Source: an uncultured Methanosarcinales archaeon
GTDB taxonomy: Archaea > Nanobdellota > Nanobdellia > Woesearchaeales > UBA12501
Direction of reading: 5' to 3'
NCBI GenBank assembly: GCA_964459835.1
Contig: CAYWPA010000002.1
Span: 48,711-112,710 of the forward strand
DNA: 64,000 nt
Shown: in pieces, positions 3,924 to 63,064 of the stretch
How the letters are laid out: every line of letters starts with the position of its first letter
Numbering within the stretch: position 1 is the stretch's first letter
Made by a program: the position numbers and the translations under genes
The notes under the pieces: generated by a model
What the model saw: only the letters and a program-made list of their open reading frames with translations
The model's database searches: none
Told to the model about the DNA's origin: nothing

Positions 3924-4484
3924 TTACCATTTCTTTTTATTTATTCCAAGGTAAAATCCAAGATGATTCATTATTATGTGTGATGCAAAGCTTGTTATGA
4001 ATATTGCAGCCACTATCATAACAGAAGGCTTGTGTATAAATGAGGAAAAAAACAAAGCTCCGACAACATAATCTATCTGGTCAAACGGAATCCATCTTTC
4101 TCCTGGCTTTATGCCAATTCTTCTTTTGAAAAAGCTTTTTACCAAGTCTCCGAAAATTGCTCCAGCACCCATCAAAAGCCCGAACATTATCGGTGTTGCC
4201 GAATAATCAATTATGCTTATGCTCTTGAAAAAATCAACAGTGTCAATATTATACAGAAGAGCCTGGATGTAGAAAAAAACAACGCCAAAAATAACAGCTG
4301 CAAACAGGCCCCTGAAGGTTTTATGCGAGCCAAACAGCGACTTTCCCATAAAAACAGCATTAAAGTCGATCGGCTTTGCGAGCTTTTTGAAAGTTCCCCT
4401 GGCAAAAACAGGCGCCATGTTGGCAAAATGCGCCGGCATCATATAATACAATGCCTGTACCAATAGCAATATTGTTTCGTTCAT
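3924..4484 (-). CDS. carS: CDP-archaeol synthase
   Basis: GKTWRG-like 'KTFRGL' motif, GDLVKSFFKRRIGIKPGE and DQIDYVVGALFF match the CarS (DUF46) signature. Confidence 0.7.
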   Translation of the reverse strand: MNETILLLVQALYYMMPAHFANMAPVFARGTFKKLAKPIDFNAVFMGKSLFGSHKTFRGLFAAVIFGVVFFYIQALLYNIDTVDFFKSISIIDYSATPIMFGLLMGAGAIFGDLVKSFFKRRIGIKPGERWIPFDQIDYVVGALFFSSFIHKPSVMIVAAIFITSFASHIIMNHLGFYLGINKKKW

Positions 4485-4497
4485 TTTTCTGCCTTTA

Positions 4498-4941
4498 TTA
4501 CCTTATTCCGTGCACAGCGAGGGTAATGATAATGCCAATGGCAAAGCCTGCCAGCACCTCTAAAAGAGTATGCCCTGTCAAATGCTTCCATTCTGCCACT
4601 ATGGGCTCCCTGTGAACAAGCTTCTTAAACATTGAATTGATTATGCTTTCCTGCTTTCCTGCAAAAATCTTATCTCCTATAACATCCCTTATTATGATAA
4701 GGGAAAATCCTGTTGCAGCAAGAAACAGCAGGCTCATCCCCTCAATCAGATAAATGCTTAGTGCAATTGAAACAACAAAAGCAGTATGCGTTGATGGCAT
4801 TCCTGCTTCTATAAACAAATACCTCCAATGGTACTTGCCGTTCCTTTTTGATTCAATAATGGATTTTATTATTTGTGGTATTATGGCTACAAAAAAAGCG
4901 CTTTGCACAAGTTTGCTGGCAATAAATTCCTGAAGCATCAT
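4498..4941 (-). CDS. divergent PAP2/DUF212 family membrane protein
   Basis: GMPSTHTAFV motif (GMPSSHSA consensus) with TM helices. Confidence 0.55.
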   Translation of the reverse strand: MMLQEFIASKLVQSAFFVAIIPQIIKSIIESKRNGKYHWRYLFIEAGMPSTHTAFVVSIALSIYLIEGMSLLFLAATGFSLIIIRDVIGDKIFAGKQESIINSMFKKLVHREPIVAEWKHLTGHTLLEVLAGFAIGIIITLAVHGIR

Positions 4942-4947
4942 ATCACC

Positions 4948-5445
4948 TTAAATCAATTTTTTTATTTTAATATTGCTTATCATCAGCAGCGAAGATATTA
5001 AATAAATTATCGGGTAGATCGTTACAGGAGTGCGCAAAAAATAAACAAGAGGGATTATTATCCCGTTAAAAGTAATTGGCATTCCTATGTATTCTTTTAT
5101 GTTTAGTGTATTGAACCTTGCCAGCCTTAATACTCCGCATGCAATAAAAAATATCCATACAGGTATGAACATGATTGTTTCGGAGCTTATAATAAAGGCA
5201 AAAACTGCCGGGGAAATGCCAAATGAAACCAAGTCAGCCAGAGAGTCAAGCTGCTTTCCGAACAAATGAGTTGTGCCTTTTCTTGCAACCTTTCCGTCAA
5301 GGTAGTCAAACAGTACAGACAAAAGCATAAATCCTGCTGCAAGGTTAAGCAGATGAAGGACTGAAAAAAATATTGAAAAGCTTCCTGAAATAACATTAAG
5401 CAGTGTTACATAATCCTGTTTTTTTAGCAGTTTTTTGAAGTTCAT
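4948..5445 (-). CDS. pssA: CDP-alcohol phosphatidyltransferase, archaetidylserine synthase-like
   Basis: DYLDGKVARKG...G..LDSLADLVSFG equals the D-x2-DG-x2-AR...G-x3-D-x3-D motif. Its start overlaps psd (ATGA). Confidence 0.65.
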   Translation of the reverse strand: MNFKKLLKKQDYVTLLNVISGSFSIFFSVLHLLNLAAGFMLLSVLFDYLDGKVARKGTTHLFGKQLDSLADLVSFGISPAVFAFIISSETIMFIPVWIFFIACGVLRLARFNTLNIKEYIGMPITFNGIIIPLVYFLRTPVTIYPIIYLISSLLMISNIKIKKLI

Positions 5446-6077
5446 TCCGCAATCACAGTTTCGCCATCCACCACGTAATCCCCTTCTTTTACTTTTATTC
5501 CGAAACTGTCAGGAAGTATTACGCTTACCTGGCTTCCCAGCTTTATTATGCCTATAGTCTGCCCCTTTTTAATGTTTTGGTTTTTTCTGGCAAAGCATTC
5601 TATCCTGTTTGCCACAAGACCTGCTATCTGAATTATCTTTATTCTGCCTTTTTTTGTTTCCAGGAGTATCTCATTGTTCTCATTTTCAAGAGCTGCTCTC
5701 ATATTTCTTGCGCCAAGAACAGCATTGTGCAGCTTTCCTTTATTGTATTTGATATTCAGCACTTTTCCATCCGCCGGAGATCTCTGGTAATGCACATTCA
5801 GCGGGTTCATTACTATGTTTATCAGGTAGCCTTTTTTTATAGTATCTTTTGTCTGTAAATTTATCTTTCCAAGCATGCCTTTCTTTATTTCAACATTGCT
5901 ATCACCAACCGTTAGGACCCTTGCAACCTTTCCGTTTGCAGGAGAGACAATGCCTTTTATTGGCGTGTTTCTTTTTGGATTTCTTAAGAAAACTATTCTG
6001 TAAAACACTGCAAACAAGATTATTATTGTTGCTATTGCAGACAGCGTTATCTGAATTATTTGTGCTATTTGAACCAT
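5442..6077 (-). CDS. psd: phosphatidylserine (archaetidylserine) decarboxylase proenzyme
   Basis: PSD-like fold with an LGSQVSV self-cleavage-type (G-S) motif near the C-terminus. Operonic with pssA. Confidence 0.65.
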   Translation of the reverse strand: MVQIAQIIQITLSAIATIIILFAVFYRIVFLRNPKRNTPIKGIVSPANGKVARVLTVGDSNVEIKKGMLGKINLQTKDTIKKGYLINIVMNPLNVHYQRSPADGKVLNIKYNKGKLHNAVLGARNMRAALENENNEILLETKKGRIKIIQIAGLVANRIECFARKNQNIKKGQTIGIIKLGSQVSVILPDSFGIKVKEGDYVVDGETVIAE

Positions 6078-6770: not shown

Positions 6771-6974
6771 TTACTTCATCCTGACAAGCATTTCAATAAC
6801 AGAATCTCCAAACTCCTGCTTGATTGACTTTATCTTTGGCTCTGCAAGCACATGCTGTTTGTGCTGCGAGCATTCTTTCTTGTCTTCCCAATAGAAAAAG
6901 CACTTTTCCTTAAAATTCTCCCAGTTTGAACAATCCTTGCAAAGCTCGTTTCCTGCCATAATACCATTGAGCAA
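6771..6974 (-). CDS. small Cys-rich hypothetical protein (67 aa)
   Basis: ORF with CxxC/CxxxC residues and no known family. Confidence 0.3.
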   Translation of the reverse strand: MLNGIMAGNELCKDCSNWENFKEKCFFYWEDKKECSQHKQHVLAEPKIKSIKQEFGDSVIEMLVRMK

Positions 6975-7008
6975 GAAATCTATTTAAATCTTTCTGCTTT
7001 ACGATACT

Positions 7009-7146
7009 GTCAAGTTAAGTGCCAATGCTGCCAAGCAACGGTTTCGTCCATTGACACCGAGATTAGTGCAGGATTTCACTGCGTTCAATCCTGCTCCATA
7101 AGCGAACAGAGCGCGGCATTGGCATGAGACACGCTACTTGACTTAA
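7009..7146 (-). repeat. hairpin repeat element copy A (inverted orientation, 12-bp internal insertion)
   Basis: Termini GTCAAGTTAAGTGCCAATGCTGCC ... GCGCGGCATTGGCA..CTTGAC match copies B-D in reverse complement. Confidence 0.7.
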
Positions 7147-7196
7147 CCCTACCTTACGAAAACTATATAAATAAATTAGAAGCTTTTCTCCTTAAT

Positions 7197-7269
7197 GCCT
7201 CCGTAGCTTAGCAGGTAGAGCATTCGGCTGTTAACCGAAAGGTCGCCAGTTCGAGTCTGGCCGGAGGCG
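7197..7269 (+). tRNA. tRNA-Asn (GTT)
   Basis: Cloverleaf: acceptor GCCTCCG/CGGAGGC, D arm GCTT..GAGC, anticodon loop CTGTTAA, T loop TTCGAGT. Confidence 0.85.
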
Positions 7270-7282
7270 TTTTAGCTATAAC

Positions 7283-7434
7283 GGGCCCGTAGCTTAGCCT
7301 GGTGGAGCACACGACTGATAAACATTAAGCCGGGATTCTCTACGGAGGATGACGGCATTGAGAACCAAAATTCTCAATCCAAGGCTTGAAGTTCATAGAT
7401 CGTGAGGTCGGGAGTTCAAATCTCCTCGGGCCCA
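7283..7434 (+). tRNA. tRNA-Ile (GAT) with ~78-nt intron at position 37/38
   Basis: Acceptor GGGCCCG/CGGGCCC+A. Anticodon stem CACGA/TCGTG is separated by 7321..7398. Anticodon loop CTGATAA, T loop TTCAAAT. Confidence 0.75.
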
Positions 7435-7458
7435 TTCCTATTTCCACTATTCTTAAAA

Positions 7459-9015
7459 ATGGCAAAAAAACAAATAGAGCAAAAGTTTAGCAATGATGTT
7501 GTTAATCTTGCTTTTGATACAATAAGCCTTGGGAAGCAGGCCTTGGTTTTTCTAAATACAAAGCGCTCTGCAGAAAAAGCTGCTGAAGACATAAGCTTAA
7601 AGATAAAAGAAGGCAGCGCTGAAACAGAGGAGCTTTCAAATAAAATTCTAAAAGCATTATCAAGGCCGACATCGCAATGCGAAAGACTTGCAAGGTGTGT
7701 GAAGAAAGGCATAGCATTCCATCATGCTGGATTGGTGCAGAAGCAGAAAGAGATGATTGAAGATGCATTCAAGCAAAATAAGATTAAGATTATCTGCTGC
7801 ACCCCTACCCTTGCAGCCGGCGTTGATTTGCCTGCATTCAGGTCAATAATAAGAGACCTTAAAAGATACGGGCACAGGGGATTAGACTGGATTCCTGTTC
7901 TGGAGTACGAGCAGATGTCTGGAAGGGCCGGAAGGCCGAAGTATGATACATTCGGAGAGGCAATATGCATAGCAGGCCAGGAAAACGAGAAGGAAAGGAT
8001 AGTTGAAAGGTATATTGAAGGAGAGCCTGAAGAGATTTACTCTAAGCTGGCAGTAGAGCCAGTATTGAGAATGTATATCTTATCTTTAGTTGCAAGTGAG
8101 TTTGTAACGACAAAAAAGCAGCTTCTTGATTTCTTTAAAAAGACCTTCTGGGCGTACCAGTATGAAGATATTGAAAAATTGGAAGGAATAATAGATAAGA
8201 TGATAAATCTGCTTTCTGGATACAAATTTATTGAAGCAGATGAGAAAGAGTTTGCTTCTGCAAATGAAATAGGAAAAGAAAGCCTAAAAGCCACGCTGCT
8301 CGGGCAGAGGATTGCGCAGCTTTACATTGACCCATTGACAGCACACAATATTTTAAATGCATTGAAAAGGTCTTCTTCAAAGCAGGTAAATGAATTTTCT
8401 TTTTTGCAGATGGTCTCATATACTTTGGAATTGCGTCCGTTGCTGAGAATAAAAGTAAGGGAATACGACACTATTGAAAACGAGTTTACAAAGTTTGAGA
8501 GCAATTTAATAACACTTGAGCCTTCTTTGTACGATCCTGAGCATGACGAGTTTTTTGATTCTGTGAAGACTGCCTTGTTTTTCCATGACTGGATAGATGA
8601 AAATGATGAAGAGTTTCTTCTGAAGAAATATGATGTAAGGCCAGGTGAGATAAGGGTGAAGCTTGAAAGGGCTGAATGGCTGCTGTATGCTGCCGAGGAG
8701 ATGGCAAAGCTGCAGAAGATGCACAGCATAGTAAAAGAAATAATGAAAACAAGATTCAGGCTAAGGTATGGTGTAAGGGAAGAGCTGCTTACTCTGCTAA
8801 GGCTGGAAGGCATTGGAAGGGTAAGGGCAAGAAAGCTTTACAATCACAAGATAAAAGATATTGGAGATGTAAAAAAGGCAGATGTTTCTGTTTTGGCGCA
8901 GCTTCTTGGAAAGAACGTCGCAATAAAGGTAAAAAAGCAGGTTGGAGAGGATATAGAAAAGCTGAAAGTCCCTGAAAGAAAAAGAAAAGGGCAGCTCAGC
9001 CTGGGTGGCTACTGA
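7459..9015 (+). CDS. hel308: Hel308/Ski2-like DNA helicase, C-terminal portion only (RecA2-WH-ratchet-HhH); RecA1/Walker half absent
   Basis: Begins ~25 aa before motif IV (LVFLNTKRS). Motif V TPTLAAGVDLPA, motif VI MSGRAGRP, and a C-terminal HhH (GIGRVRARKLY) follow. No Walker A/DExH upstream, where the tRNA genes abut. Start set at the first ATG after tRNA-Ile. Confidence 0.8.
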   Translation: MAKKQIEQKFSNDVVNLAFDTISLGKQALVFLNTKRSAEKAAEDISLKIKEGSAETEELSNKILKALSRPTSQCERLARCVKKGIAFHHAGLVQKQKEMIEDAFKQNKIKIICCTPTLAAGVDLPAFRSIIRDLKRYGHRGLDWIPVLEYEQMSGRAGRPKYDTFGEAICIAGQENEKERIVERYIEGEPEEIYSKLAVEPVLRMYILSLVASEFVTTKKQLLDFFKKTFWAYQYEDIEKLEGIIDKMINLLSGYKFIEADEKEFASANEIGKESLKATLLGQRIAQLYIDPLTAHNILNALKRSSSKQVNEFSFLQMVSYTLELRPLLRIKVREYDTIENEFTKFESNLITLEPSLYDPEHDEFFDSVKTALFFHDWIDENDEEFLLKKYDVRPGEIRVKLERAEWLLYAAEEMAKLQKMHSIVKEIMKTRFRLRYGVREELLTLLRLEGIGRVRARKLYNHKIKDIGDVKKADVSVLAQLLGKNVAIKVKKQVGEDIEKLKVPERKRKGQLSLGGY

Positions 9016-9659
9016 TGCAGGAGATAATAACAAAAGACAATTCTCCAACAATAATGTCTTTGGAGTATTCTGAACCATACCGTTCCATTTCCGGAGCAAT
9101 GGAGGAATCTTTCAAGAAGTTTATAGGCCCGTGCAGGATAAAAGAATTTAAGGATGAAGTAAGTATTTTAGACATTGGCTTTGGCTTAGGCTATAATGTA
9201 TGCGCAGCTGTAGATGCTGTTTTGGAAGCAAATCCAAAATGCAATTTAGTTGTTTTTTCATTGGAAAAAGATAAAGAAATATTAAAAAAACTACAAAACC
9301 TAAATCCAGCTTTTAAAAATTACAATATGATAAAAGGGCTGGCAAAAAATCTTGAGTATAGAAAAGGCAATATAAATTTAAAGATTATTCTTGGCAATGC
9401 AACAGAAACAATAAAAAAAATAAATACAGATTTTGATGCAGTGTTTCTTGACCCTTTCTCCCCTCCGAAAAACCCTGAGTTATGGACAGAGGAATTTCTT
9501 AACGAGGTTGCCAAAAGAATGAAGAAAAGCGGGATTTTGGCGACCTACAGCTGCGCCAGGATAGTGAGGGAGAACATGAAAAAAGCAGGCCTTATGCCAG
9601 AGGACGGTCCATCCGTCGGAAGAAGGGCCCCTTCTACAATAGCAAGAAAAGCTTTATAA
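9015..9659 (+). CDS. MnmC/MnmD-like SAM-dependent tRNA methyltransferase (DUF752)
   Basis: DIGFGLGYN (SAM site) and FLDPFSPPKNPELWT...ILATYSCARIV..G closely parallel E. coli MnmC, DGFAPAKNPDMWT...LATFTSAGFVRRGL. Confidence 0.65.
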   Translation: MQEIITKDNSPTIMSLEYSEPYRSISGAMEESFKKFIGPCRIKEFKDEVSILDIGFGLGYNVCAAVDAVLEANPKCNLVVFSLEKDKEILKKLQNLNPAFKNYNMIKGLAKNLEYRKGNINLKIILGNATETIKKINTDFDAVFLDPFSPPKNPELWTEEFLNEVAKRMKKSGILATYSCARIVRENMKKAGLMPEDGPSVGRRAPSTIARKAL

Positions 9660-9660
9660 A
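9639..9660 (+). repeat. 22-bp direct repeat, left copy (ATAGCAAGAAAAGCTTTATAAA), includes the stop codon of the mnmC-like gene
   Basis: Perfect 22/22 match with 10651..10672. Confidence 0.85.
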
Positions 9661-9683
9661 ATATCAGAATATTAATAGTTAGT

Positions 9684-10550
9684 ATGAAGTTGAATTATAT
9701 TTCCCTATTGGCAATTTTGTTAATTGGTATGGTTTTTCTAAGCAGTTGTATGTCACAAGAATCACCAACAAAAGCTCCGACTACCACTCAACCATCTGAC
9801 ACTCCAGAAACAACACAACAAGAAACAACATCACAACAGCCAGATAAAGTTATTGACAAAGGAGACTTTAAAGTTGTATACGATTCGGTAGAAAACCCAG
9901 ATTTTATTGAATTAGAAAAAGTGCTTAAAGAATCAAAATTATTTGAAGAGGTAACAAACGAACTTAATAATAATTTTGCTTTACCTTATGATATTCTTGT
10001 TGTTTTTGAAGAATGCGGAGAAGAAAATGCGTTTTACGATTCGAATACTAAACAAATAACAATGTGTTATGAACTGATGGGTTACTTTGCCAAAGTATTT
10101 TATGATTATTCTGAAGATGATAATGACTTGGGAACGGCAATGCTAAATAGCATGTTTTTTGCATTCTATCATGAAGTTGGTCACATGATGGTTGATATAT
10201 ATGATTTACCTGCTACAGGCAATTCTGAAGATAATGCTGATCAAGTATCTACATTAATTCTTTTGAGTGACGAGGCTGATGGAGTAAGTACACTTTTGAA
10301 TGGGGCCAATTGGTTCTTTATAAAATCTGAAGAATCGGATATTGAAGAATCTATATTTTCAGACATTCACTCTCCCGATAAAAGGAGGTATTATAATCTC
10401 TTATGTTGGATTTATGGTAGTGACCCTGAAAACGGAGAATACATAATTACAGAATGGGAACTTCCAGAAGAAAGGGCTATTGGATGTGAAGAAGAATATA
10501 ATCAAATGTCTAATAGCTGGGATCGTTTGCTTTCTCCTTATTTCAAATGA
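9684..10550 (+). CDS. secreted/lipoprotein putative zinc metallopeptidase (HEVGH; DUF4344-like)
   Basis: Signal peptide with an LSSC lipobox, a T/Q/P-rich linker and an HEVGHMM HExxH motif. More AT-rich than its flanks and bracketed by the 22-bp direct repeats. Confidence 0.55.
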   Translation: MKLNYISLLAILLIGMVFLSSCMSQESPTKAPTTTQPSDTPETTQQETTSQQPDKVIDKGDFKVVYDSVENPDFIELEKVLKESKLFEEVTNELNNNFALPYDILVVFEECGEENAFYDSNTKQITMCYELMGYFAKVFYDYSEDDNDLGTAMLNSMFFAFYHEVGHMMVDIYDLPATGNSEDNADQVSTLILLSDEADGVSTLLNGANWFFIKSEESDIEESIFSDIHSPDKRRYYNLLCWIYGSDPENGEYIITEWELPEERAIGCEEEYNQMSNSWDRLLSPYFK

Positions 10551-10650: not shown

Positions 10651-10672
10651 ATAGCAAGAAAAGCTTTATAAA
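10651..10672 (+). repeat. 22-bp direct repeat, right copy
   Basis: Perfect repeat of 9639..9660. It creates a short ORF tail ...IARKAL* that duplicates the mnmC-like C-terminus. Confidence 0.85.
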
Positions 10673-13330: not shown

Positions 13331-13402
13331 GCCCCCATAGTCTAATGGATAGAATACCTGGTTGCGGTCCAGGAGGTCGGGGTTCGATTCCTCGTGGGGG
13401 CG
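13331..13402 (+). tRNA. tRNA-Arg (GCG)
   Basis: Acceptor GCCCCCA/TGGGGGC+G, anticodon stem CCTGG/CCAGG with loop TTGCGGT, T arm CGGGG-TTCGATT-CCTCG. Weak D stem. Confidence 0.7.
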
Positions 13403-32153: not shown

Positions 32154-32215
32154 TTCATATCACTGTAATTATATACTGTTATTTCAACTATAACAATGTT
32201 TCTATCCAAGGGTGC

Positions 32216-32344
32216 TGCCAACTTAAGTGCCAATGCTGCGCTCTGTTCGCTTCTTCATTTCTTTTTCGCATTCGAGGAACTCTCGCAATTGCTTCACCAT
32301 TTGAGCACGCCGCTTGGCAGCATTGGCACCTTGCTTGGCTTGAC
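32216..32344 (+). repeat. hairpin repeat element copy C
   Basis: TGCCAACTTAAGTGCCAATGCTGCGCTCTGTTCG ... CCGCTTGGCAGCATTGGCACCTTGCTTGGCTTGAC. Abuts the stop codon of 32346..34370. Confidence 0.7.
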
Positions 32345-32345
32345 C

Positions 32346-62299: not shown

Positions 62300-62405
62300 C
62301 GGATTGTTGTTCTTGTTTTACCTTCAACTAGCTCATGATTTTAAGCATAGAAGAATATATACAGGGTTTTGCAGTAGTATTTAAAGCTTTTGCTTCTTAT
62401 GCAAT

Positions 62406-62528
62406 GTCAACCTAAGTGCCAATGCTGCGCTTTGTACGCTTCTGTCTTTGTTCTCGCAATCAAGGCACTTTCGCAATCGCTTCCTGTTATAAGGCACGGC
62501 GCTTGGCAGCATTGGCACCTTTCTTGAC
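62406..62528 (+). repeat. hairpin repeat element copy D
   Basis: GTCAACCTAAGTGCCAATGCTGCGCTTTGTACG ... GGCGCTTGGCAGCATTGGCACCTTTCTTGAC. Ends exactly at the cmk stop codon. Confidence 0.7.
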
Positions 62529-63064
62529 TATATATGTTTCTTCACTGCTTTCAAAACCTCTTGTATTTCCTCTTCTATTGTTAGGTTTGTTGTGTCAATA
62601 ACATAATCATAATTTGACTTGTCGTAATGGTTAACATTATAGTATTCTTTATACCTTTTCATTTCTGACTTTATCCTTTCTGCAAGCTTGTTTACCATAT
62701 CCTGCCTTGTAAAAGCCTCTTCGTCATTTCTTCCCTGGTTTAATATTCTCTGCGCTCCTACTTCCAAATCAACATCCAGGAATATTTTTATTGATTTTGG
62801 AATAAAATGAAATCCCAGCCTGGAATCAATCACAAAATTATCCTCTCTTTCTCCAAGCCTTTTCTGCCGTTTGTCAACCTCAATGTCTATGCTTTTGTCC
62901 TGCTCCTCAAGCTCATTCAGCTCTGCCAGCGTGAGCCCTTTCTCCTCTGCAATCTCCCTTTGAAAATCACCCATAGAATAATGCTTCATGCCTAATCTAT
63001 TAGCCACTTCCTTTGCAACAGTGCTTTTTCCTGAGCCAGGCGCTCCGCCTATTGTTATTATCAT
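62528..63064 (-). CDS. cmk: cytidylate kinase, archaeal type (P-loop NMP kinase)
   Basis: MIITIGGAPGSGKSTVAKEVA, ~178 aa. Confidence 0.6.
   Translation of the reverse strand: MIITIGGAPGSGKSTVAKEVANRLGMKHYSMGDFQREIAEEKGLTLAELNELEEQDKSIDIEVDKRQKRLGEREDNFVIDSRLGFHFIPKSIKIFLDVDLEVGAQRILNQGRNDEEAFTRQDMVNKLAERIKSEMKRYKEYYNVNHYDKSNYDYVIDTTNLTIEEEIQEVLKAVKKHI

Follow-up and report, generated by a model that had tools for sequence, protein, structure and literature searches.

A probable two-subunit Hel308 helicase encoded by unlinked genes in Woesearchaeota-type DPANN archaea

Hel308/HELQ is a conserved replication-fork repair helicase. We analyzed a 64-kb stretch of contig CAYWPA010000002.1 from an uncultured Woesearchaeales archaeon (64,000 nucleotides, hereafter the window), in which a hel308 gene occurs as its C-terminal part only. 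This gene, located at 7459–9015 on the forward strand, very probably encodes the functional C-subunit of a two-piece Hel308 (Hjm/HELQ-type, a Ski2-like superfamily 2 (SF2) helicase). The N-terminal half would be encoded at an unlinked locus, following a gene fission that is clade-wide.

The C-half gene encodes 518 amino acids followed by a stop codon. Under the longest-start rule, the open reading frame (ORF) spans 7402–9015 on the forward strand and begins with a GTG that lies inside a tRNA-Ile gene. The ATG at 7459 is the start supported by homologues, as it fits the N-termini of all those examined; the resulting protein begins MAKKQ.... The range given in the first-pass annotation starts at 7197, which is the first nucleotide of a tRNA-Asn gene and not of the helicase gene. 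Its other observations on the locus were borne out: the gene holds the C-terminal 518 residues of Hel308, no RecA1 domain lies upstream, and tRNA genes occupy that place. It had estimated the start at about 25 residues before motif IV, and QALVF indeed begins at residue 27. Motif, Pfam and Protein Data Bank (PDB) alignments agree that the ORF contains motifs IV–VI and the winged-helix, ratchet and helix-hairpin-helix (HhH) domains. The features of the locus are as follows.

7197–7269, forward strand: tRNA-Asn(GUU) (Rfam tRNA model, 72.8 bits; ARAGORN).
7283–7434, forward strand: tRNA-Ile(GAU) with a 79-nt insertion, 7321–7399, at canonical position 37/38 (Rfam tRNA model, 50.7 bits).
7459–9015, forward strand: hel308 C-half, comprising most of RecA2 plus the winged-helix, ratchet and HhH domains (2zj2 match, Pfam, homologues).
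7537–7551, forward strand: motif IV, QALVF, residues 27–31 (Q27 and F31 invariant in a 40-sequence alignment).
7714–7734, forward strand: motif IVa, AFHHAGL, residues 86–92, a Hel308/HELQ signature (F87, H88, H89 and G91 invariant).
7801–7842, forward strand: motif V, TPTLAAGVDLPAFR, residues 115–128 (T115, P116, L118, G121, P125 and R128 invariant).
7912–7938, forward strand: motif VI, QMSGRAGRP, residues 152–160 (Q152, G155, R156, G158, R159 and P160 invariant).
Residues 75–160 of the protein: Helicase_C (Pfam).
7954–8235, forward strand: winged helix (domain 3), residues 166–259 (Pfam HTH_61, passing the cut-off).
8398–8772, forward strand: ratchet (domain 4), residues 314–438 (Pfam Helicase_dom4_arc, E 8e-29, passing the cut-off).
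8791–8934, forward strand: HhH (domain 5), residues 445–492 (Pfam HHH_5, 26.8 bits, just under the curated cut-off of 27; alignment with the Hjm/Hel308 C-termini).

The 518-residue protein corresponds approximately to residues 213–720 of Hel308/Hjm. In a phmmer search of the PDB, its residues 16–513 aligned with residues 228–714 of the 720 in Pyrococcus furiosus Hjm (2zj2) with an E-value of 2e-90, and the similarity, judged from this alignment, is far above chance. The same search aligned the protein with residues 243–680 of Archaeoglobus fulgidus Hel308 and with Sulfolobus solfataricus Hel308. Motif IVa (F/YHHAGL) is as defined in PMC10484726, and W407, aligned with the ratchet Trp of the A. 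fulgidus enzyme, is invariant. The C-half ORF contains no internal stop codons or frameshifts, and an AlphaFold2 model of the single chain had a predicted local distance difference test score (pLDDT) of 83.

RecA1, with its Q motif, Walker A, Ia, Ib, DExH and SAT motifs, is not part of the polypeptide, and a Pfam scan of the 518 residues detected no DEAD/ResIII domain. Moreover, regular-expression scans and tblastn searches with 11 Hel308 N-terminal probes revealed no coding potential for a Hel308-type Walker A plus DExH in the whole window. For A. fulgidus, P. furiosus and Methanothermobacter thermautotrophicus, provisional Hel308 N-terminal sequences served as search probes only, and database sequences later took their place.

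The truncated form of the protein is widespread. In a search of 5.8 billion proteins, the best 120 matches to the C-half were 502–674 residues long and 57–65% identical to the query over 96–100% of its length, and none carried PF00270. Those with a name were assigned to Candidatus Woesearchaeota, Nanoarchaeota or Nanoarchaeia. All 120 share the same N-terminal boundary: a Met start, at a median of 26 residues before QALVF. In an alignment of 40 C-halves, motifs IV, IVa (AFHHAGL), V (TPTLAxGVDLPAFR) and VI (QMxGRAGRP) were invariant or nearly so, and the window protein has every invariant column, including the motif VI arginines. Because the same truncated form is conserved and its catalytic motifs are invariant, the C-half is intact rather than decayed. 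The arginine fingers of motif VI act on ATP bound to RecA1, and their invariance thus points to the existence of a RecA1 partner.

A family of suitable partners emerged when nine unsplit relatives, trimmed to their N-terminal ~220 residues, were used as a search profile. Of the best 120 matches to this profile, 118 were stand-alone proteins of 219–244 residues (median 221) with PF00270 as their sole domain; the named ones are 'DEAD/DEAH box helicase' proteins of Woesearchaeota or Nanoarchaeota. Motifs Q, I (CTPTASGKTL), Ia, Ib, Ic, II (DEIH) and III (LSATIGN) were invariant in the alignment of these N-halves, and all aligned sequences ended in ...WRPVKLHKGIYLDGEIEF followed by zero to four residues. 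A search with one of them, P0366, returned 4110 matches at E<=1e-20, and the best 120 of the 4110 were almost all about 220 residues long. The boundary is also present in raw metagenome DNA: a stop codon occurred at the equivalent position, 217–236, in 76 of 80 N-half loci. Two of the remaining loci were unsplit, encoding ~711 residues (L133 and L139), and two ran off the end of the contig. Mean column identity, based on 40 diverse sequences each, was 75% for N-halves and 65% for C-halves, values indicating that both halves are under purifying selection across lineages. Scans of viral contigs with N- and C-terminal profiles and two DNA patterns yielded only unrelated phage or viral helicases, with no Woesearchaeal hel308 in IMG/VR.

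To place the C-half among its unsplit relatives, an exhaustive phmmer search was run against 1.84 billion representatives of 50%-identity clusters, and the best 150 were classified as 45 C-halves, 87 unsplit proteins and 19 fragments. The 21 top representatives were all C-halves, and the nearest unsplit proteins (about 700–770 residues) were 41–48% identical to the query. The closest single-chain relatives, P0142/P0149 and L133/L139, are 59–60% identical to N-halves in their N-part and about 45–47% identical to the window protein in their C-part. They share with the N-halves the CTPTASGKT form of motif I. Unlike the split genes, they have a continuous ORF of about 711–726 residues that runs through the point where the former have a stop and a new start.

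Insertions of 150–530 residues in motif V or VI were observed in 28 of the 150 representatives, namely P0121, P0124, P0129, P0130, P0139 and 23 unsplit representatives. The insertion in P0121 follows the TPTL of motif V and is bounded by TPTL/C...HN/S, an intein-like arrangement.

The two families fit together precisely. N-halves extend a median of 15 residues beyond WRPV and C-halves begin 26 residues before QALVF, summing to 41 residues. In most of the unsplit relatives checked, the same interval is 40–44 residues. Thus, the halves tile Hel308 without overlap or gap. P0366, whose C-terminus reads ...GEIEFY, aligned with residues 8–213 of Hjm and residues 2–218 of A. fulgidus Hel308. In Hjm, domain 1 comprises residues 1–197 and domain 2 residues 198–399 (PMC2636818); as the N-half reaches residue ~213, the cut lies ~19 residues inside RecA2. 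An AlphaFold2 model of P0366 (pLDDT of 91) matched 2zj2 with a Foldseek template modelling score of 0.88, the protein being 50% identical to Hjm, and the RecA2 residues at its end are predicted to fold as a terminal β-hairpin (211–220).

P0366 is probably the N-half partner encoded by this genome, based on its origin in the same sequencing run, matching GC content and tetranucleotide usage, and a shared repeat. Specifically, a Logan contig of run ERR3478686 corresponds to window positions 7292–10141 with 100% identity over 2850 nt, and the gene for P0366 lies on a different contig from this run, L060. Both P0366 and the window protein are sourced from NCBI plus Logan; their NCBI contigs measure 80,130 nt (P0366) and 114,956 nt (window protein). 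The GC content of L060 is 0.376 versus 0.378 (~38%) for the window. The tetranucleotide correlation between L060 and the window was 0.954, as compared to 0.932 ± 0.018 for 1.9-kb chunks of the window itself and 0.60–0.93 for other Woesearchaeal loci. Finally, L060 shares with the window a structured intergenic repeat of ~135 nt, located as follows.

7005–7147, reverse strand: structured repeat, window copy.
32208–32345, forward strand: structured repeat, window copy.
62400–62535, forward strand: structured repeat, window copy.
L060, 1–68, forward strand: structured repeat, copy on the contig of P0366.

A 14-mer of the repeat was found in none of the 59 other loci fetched by then, and among all fetched loci the repeat was confined to the window and L060. 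The first-pass annotation had raised the possibility that the gene is split with its N-terminal half encoded elsewhere, and the ~221-residue RecA1 family in the same taxa, with P0366 from the same run, agrees with it.

The halves are unlinked in the loci available. A scan of genome contigs with the C-half protein as sole query retrieved five loci. Scanning 80 N-half loci (0.6 Mb), we found no C-half near the split N-half in any of 76 metagenome loci. Similarly, regular-expression and tblastn searches detected no N-half near the C-half in any of seven C-half loci, the window and six others, over up to 10 kb or less on shorter contigs. The gene neighborhoods of the N-half and of the C-half both vary between genomes. 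Apparent cases of linkage were rejected. Contigs of equal size in the N- and C-half match lists (6042 and 3748 nt) proved to be different contigs, and a 207-residue ORF directly upstream of the C-half in locus L006 had no RecA1 match and was, by eye, an HD-domain-type hydrolase.

Phylogenetic reconstruction was of limited resolution. A neighbor-joining tree of the C-terminal region was star-like and poorly resolved. In this tree, 29 sequences including the window protein formed a clade without unsplit proteins, and, outside the large unsplit clade, the other C-halves fell into one group of 10 and some smaller ones. Three lone 'C-halves' placed among the unsplit proteins are apparently truncated gene calls. 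Such a topology would fit a single ancient fission or a few of them.

Based on the abovementioned findings, we propose, for a large clade comprising DPANN archaea of the Woesearchaeota type, that an ancestral single hel308 was split ~19 residues inside RecA2 and that both genes later drifted to unlinked loci, the N-subunit here being most probably P0366. In the N-subunit (~221 residues), RecA1 (motifs Q, I, Ia, Ib, Ic, II and III) would be followed by the first β-hairpin of RecA2. The remainder of RecA2 (motifs IV, IVa, V and VI) would lie in the C-subunit (~520 residues), together with the winged-helix, ratchet and HhH domains. Each gene would be translated separately, from its own ATG to its own stop. 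The polypeptides would then pair non-covalently, the C-terminal hairpin of the N-subunit completing the RecA2 sheet of the C-subunit. Domains 3 and 4, which together with domain 1 build the single-stranded DNA tunnel of Hel308 (PMC2636818), may also hold RecA1. Such pairing would rebuild a composite ATP site, with the P-loop and DEIH contributed by one chain and the motif VI arginines by the other, and the outcome would be the usual 3'–5' ratchet helicase.

Several points weigh against this proposal. The association of the polypeptides and their ATPase and helicase activities are all inferred, and the AlphaFold2 model of the C-half as a single chain had a predicted template modelling score of only 0.57. 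In the neighbor-joining tree, the unsplit P0142 and P0149 adjoin the main split clade, and the tree does not separate one fission from a few. The same-genome origin of P0366 rests on run, composition and repeat, no closed genome or contig with both halves having been obtained. Of these, tetranucleotide similarity is not decisive alone, as the Woesearchaeal contig L027 reaches 0.931.

An extended version of the proposal holds that the enzyme is an obligate heterodimeric Hel308 in which assembly of the RecA1 subunit is regulated, maybe via the ~135-nt repeat upstream of both units, or in which the RecA1 subunit is shared with other partners. The split would then be put to use and not just endured. 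We consider this version unlikely. One copy of the repeat lies ~50 nt upstream of the unit formed by tRNA-Asn, tRNA-Ile and the C-half gene, and another ~40 nt upstream of the N-half gene. The copies are in opposite orientations relative to the two, and their placement may be a coincidence. The repeat consists of a perfect ~12-bp stem (TGCCAATGCTGC/GCAGCATTGGCA) and an outer GTCAA/TTGAC stem with an interior of ~85 nt. Its minimum free energy z-score is −3.1, and a 21-mer of the repeat occurs three times versus 0.02 times expected. Rfam searches with the repeat identified no family; it may be a small RNA or resemble a miniature inverted-repeat transposable element (MITE).

A quite unlikely alternative is that the C-half acts without the N-half, either as an ATP-independent DNA-binding or annealing protein or with another RecA1 donor, and that the ~221-residue protein has a separate role. 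The lack of linkage between the halves and their unrelated neighborhoods would fit such independence, as would an annealing activity of Hel308 that PMC10484726 ties to motif IVa. However, motif V and the motif VI arginines are useful only beside an ATP-loaded RecA1, yet they are invariant. Moreover, the ~19 residues of RecA2 kept on the N-half make no sense alone, and the two families carry the same taxon labels and have clean, complementary boundaries.

The possibility that the halves are rejoined into a single-chain Hel308, through RNA trans-splicing at a bulge-helix-bulge (BHB) motif or protein trans-splicing by a split intein, is very unlikely. Both mechanisms are known in Nanoarchaeum, in which split tRNAs are joined by BHB RNA trans-splicing and PolB by a split intein. 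Split tRNAs are also discussed in 10.64898/2026.05.13.725050. Further in favor of rejoining, cis-inteins occur in this helicase family (P0121 and the 28 of 150 representatives with large insertions), and an intron-bearing tRNA lies directly upstream of the window gene. Nevertheless, intein fragments would not fit at the junction: homology of the N-half to Hel308 stops only ~3 residues short of its end, and that of the C-half begins ~15 residues into the protein. Examination of the break for split-intein hallmarks (N- and C-fragments and a +1 nucleophile) revealed no unaccounted junction residues, and the N-tail and C-head sum to the unsplit length. Furthermore, N-halves have their own stop and C-halves their own Met. 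Finally, a comparison of the N-half 3' flank with the C-half 5' flank gave no sign of complementarity, the longest match being 8 nt versus a mean of 8.2 nt for shuffled sequences.

It is highly improbable that the split arose in this genome by integration or rearrangement targeted to tRNA-Asn/tRNA-Ile, as had been suggested in the first-pass annotation. The tRNA pair does end 24 nt from the gene start, tRNA genes are classic integration targets, and a copy of the MITE-like repeat is found immediately 5' of the tRNAs. However, the same breakpoint occurs in relatives that have other genes immediately upstream of the C-half: a PHP gene in L003, an HD-domain gene in L006, and divergent genes in L001 and L005. 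In the relatives compared, the tRNA-Asn/Ile genes were 2–9 kb from the C-half or not detected; specifically, the pair lies 9 kb upstream in L001 and tRNA-Ile 2 kb upstream in L006. An identical breakpoint with differing upstream genes implies that the fission is ancestral and predates the local adjacency of the tRNAs. To judge from these sequences, that adjacency is a later, local and lineage-specific arrangement. At most, the tRNAs could have had a local role, through the loss of genes once located between them and the C-half gene in this lineage.

The same annotation had offered a decaying pseudogene as the other option, that is, a non-functional, 5'-truncated hel308 remnant left after rearrangement. 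Indeed, neither the locus nor the rest of the window contains RecA1, but this reading is scarcely credible given that the same start point and form are conserved at 57–65% identity in the best 120 matches, from many independent assemblies, and that all invariant columns are kept in a gene free of internal stops and frameshifts. An artefact of assembly, binning or gene calling (a frameshift, chimeric contig or sequencing error) has a practically negligible probability: although the window is from a metagenome-assembled contig and split genes frequently arise as artefacts in some assemblies (10.64898/2026.05.13.725050), the upstream sequence consists of two well-formed tRNA genes rather than an out-of-frame RecA1, the independent Logan assembly of the run is identical over the 2850 nt, and the same boundaries recur in many independent JGI, ENA, NCBI and Logan assemblies.

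The arrangement of the C-half gene behind the tRNA genes suggests a shared transcript. The gap between the 3' end of tRNA-Ile and the ATG is 24 nt (7435–7458) and contains neither a TATA-like box at the proper distance nor a Shine-Dalgarno sequence. The only good TATA-like box, AAAACTATATAAATA at 7160–7176, is 5' of tRNA-Asn and is a putative promoter; the transcription unit probably starts with tRNA-Asn. Because of the short gap and the position of this sole TATA-like box, tRNA-Asn, tRNA-Ile and the C-half gene are probably co-transcribed, as a tRNA-tRNA-mRNA transcript that would be cut by tRNA 3'-end processing. A scan for bacterial-type promoters and terminators was uninformative for an archaeon.

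With bacterial settings, ARAGORN reported tRNA-Asn only and missed tRNA-Ile(GAU). The tRNA-Ile orthologues in L001 and L006 have no intron. In L003, from a related Woesearchaeote, ARAGORN called an 88-nt 'tRNA-Stop(tta)' at 850–937 and a 94-nt 'tRNA-???(gtta)' at 5167–5260. Both are probably intron-containing tRNAs that the program mis-parsed, and the latter may be the tRNA-Asn orthologue.

Other genes of the region are partly shared with L003. Upstream of the C-half is a lipid-synthesis cluster of CarS, DUF212, CDP-alcohol phosphatidyltransferase and phosphatidylserine decarboxylase genes (3924–6077, reverse strand, in the window; 2564–4756 in L003). Downstream are a PHP-domain gene and tRNA-Arg(GCG) at 13331–13402. 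The gene order is syntenic with that in L003, and the tRNA-Arg also occurs in L008. Based on the cluster and tRNA-Arg, the C-half is therefore in a partly conserved neighborhood. Between a histidine phosphatase gene and the structured repeat lies a 67-residue Cys-rich ORF (6771–6974, reverse strand; CxxC...C...C) with no Pfam match. An exact 22-nt direct repeat, ATAGCAAGAAAAGCTTTATAAA, occurs at 9639–9660 and 10651–10672, flanking a DUF4344 metallopeptidase gene (9684–10550). The first of the two copies forms the 3' end of a Methyltransf_30 gene, and the pair looks like a target duplication from the insertion of a single gene.

In the literature searched, whose scope did not extend to subscription journals, we found no description of a split Hel308. 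The accessible part of a 2024 survey of archaeal Ski2-like helicases (PMC10946056) mentions none, and helicases are unmentioned in a survey of archaeal gene fusions and fissions (PMC11237513). We rate the two-subunit form of this known helicase as new, split DPANN genes as such being already known. In public databases, the N-half is labelled 'DEAD/DEAH box helicase' and the C-half 'helicase-related' or 'hypothetical protein'. With such separate labels, automated surveys of Woesearchaeota will record Hel308 as missing or as a fragment, and the split gene may be marked as an error by checks of completeness or frameshifts. Recognizing the pair corrects the DNA-repair inventories of a very abundant DPANN clade. 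A natural two-piece SF2 motor would also provide a system for studying the RecA1–RecA2 cleft, the ratchet, and the assembly of and communication within the domain ring in trans.

Compared with single-chain Hel308/Hjm (P. furiosus, 2ZJ2; A. fulgidus, 2P6R; S. solfataricus, 2VA8), all five domains and the SF2 motifs are present across the two products. The C-half keeps motif IVa (F/YHHAGL), the ratchet Trp and the HhH tail. At the position of the A. fulgidus ratchet Arg592, the window protein has Val400, flanked by the basic residues R399 and K401. Unlike the single-chain enzymes, the halves are encoded by two unlinked genes, such that two polypeptides must come together to make the ATPase cleft. 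Moreover, the break is ~19 residues inside RecA2 and not at the boundary between domains 1 and 2 of Hjm. Intein-containing Hel308 homologues are members of this family; among them are several C-halves and unsplit relatives with inteins of ~450–530 residues in motif V or VI. Those cis-inteins lie inside one ORF and at a site other than the fission point; the window gene contains no intein and the fission point no intein remnants.

Waters et al. are said to have described in 2003 split genes of Nanoarchaeum equitans that include reverse gyrase, AlaRS, an Lhr-type large helicase and Dph1/2. Split genes of DPANN archaea likewise include reverse gyrase, tRNA synthetases and Dph1/2, and the N. equitans splits are largely restricted to a few very reduced genomes (PMC6349945). 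The Hel308 split resembles these cases in that an informational gene of a reduced genome is divided into two separately translated, unlinked ORFs that tile the ancestral protein. In contrast to the N. equitans splits, it is kept across a very large and diverse clade, as reflected in the 4110 N-half-like clusters (E<=1e-20). The Hel308 fission is ancient and clade-wide, and is not limited to a few extremely reduced genomes.

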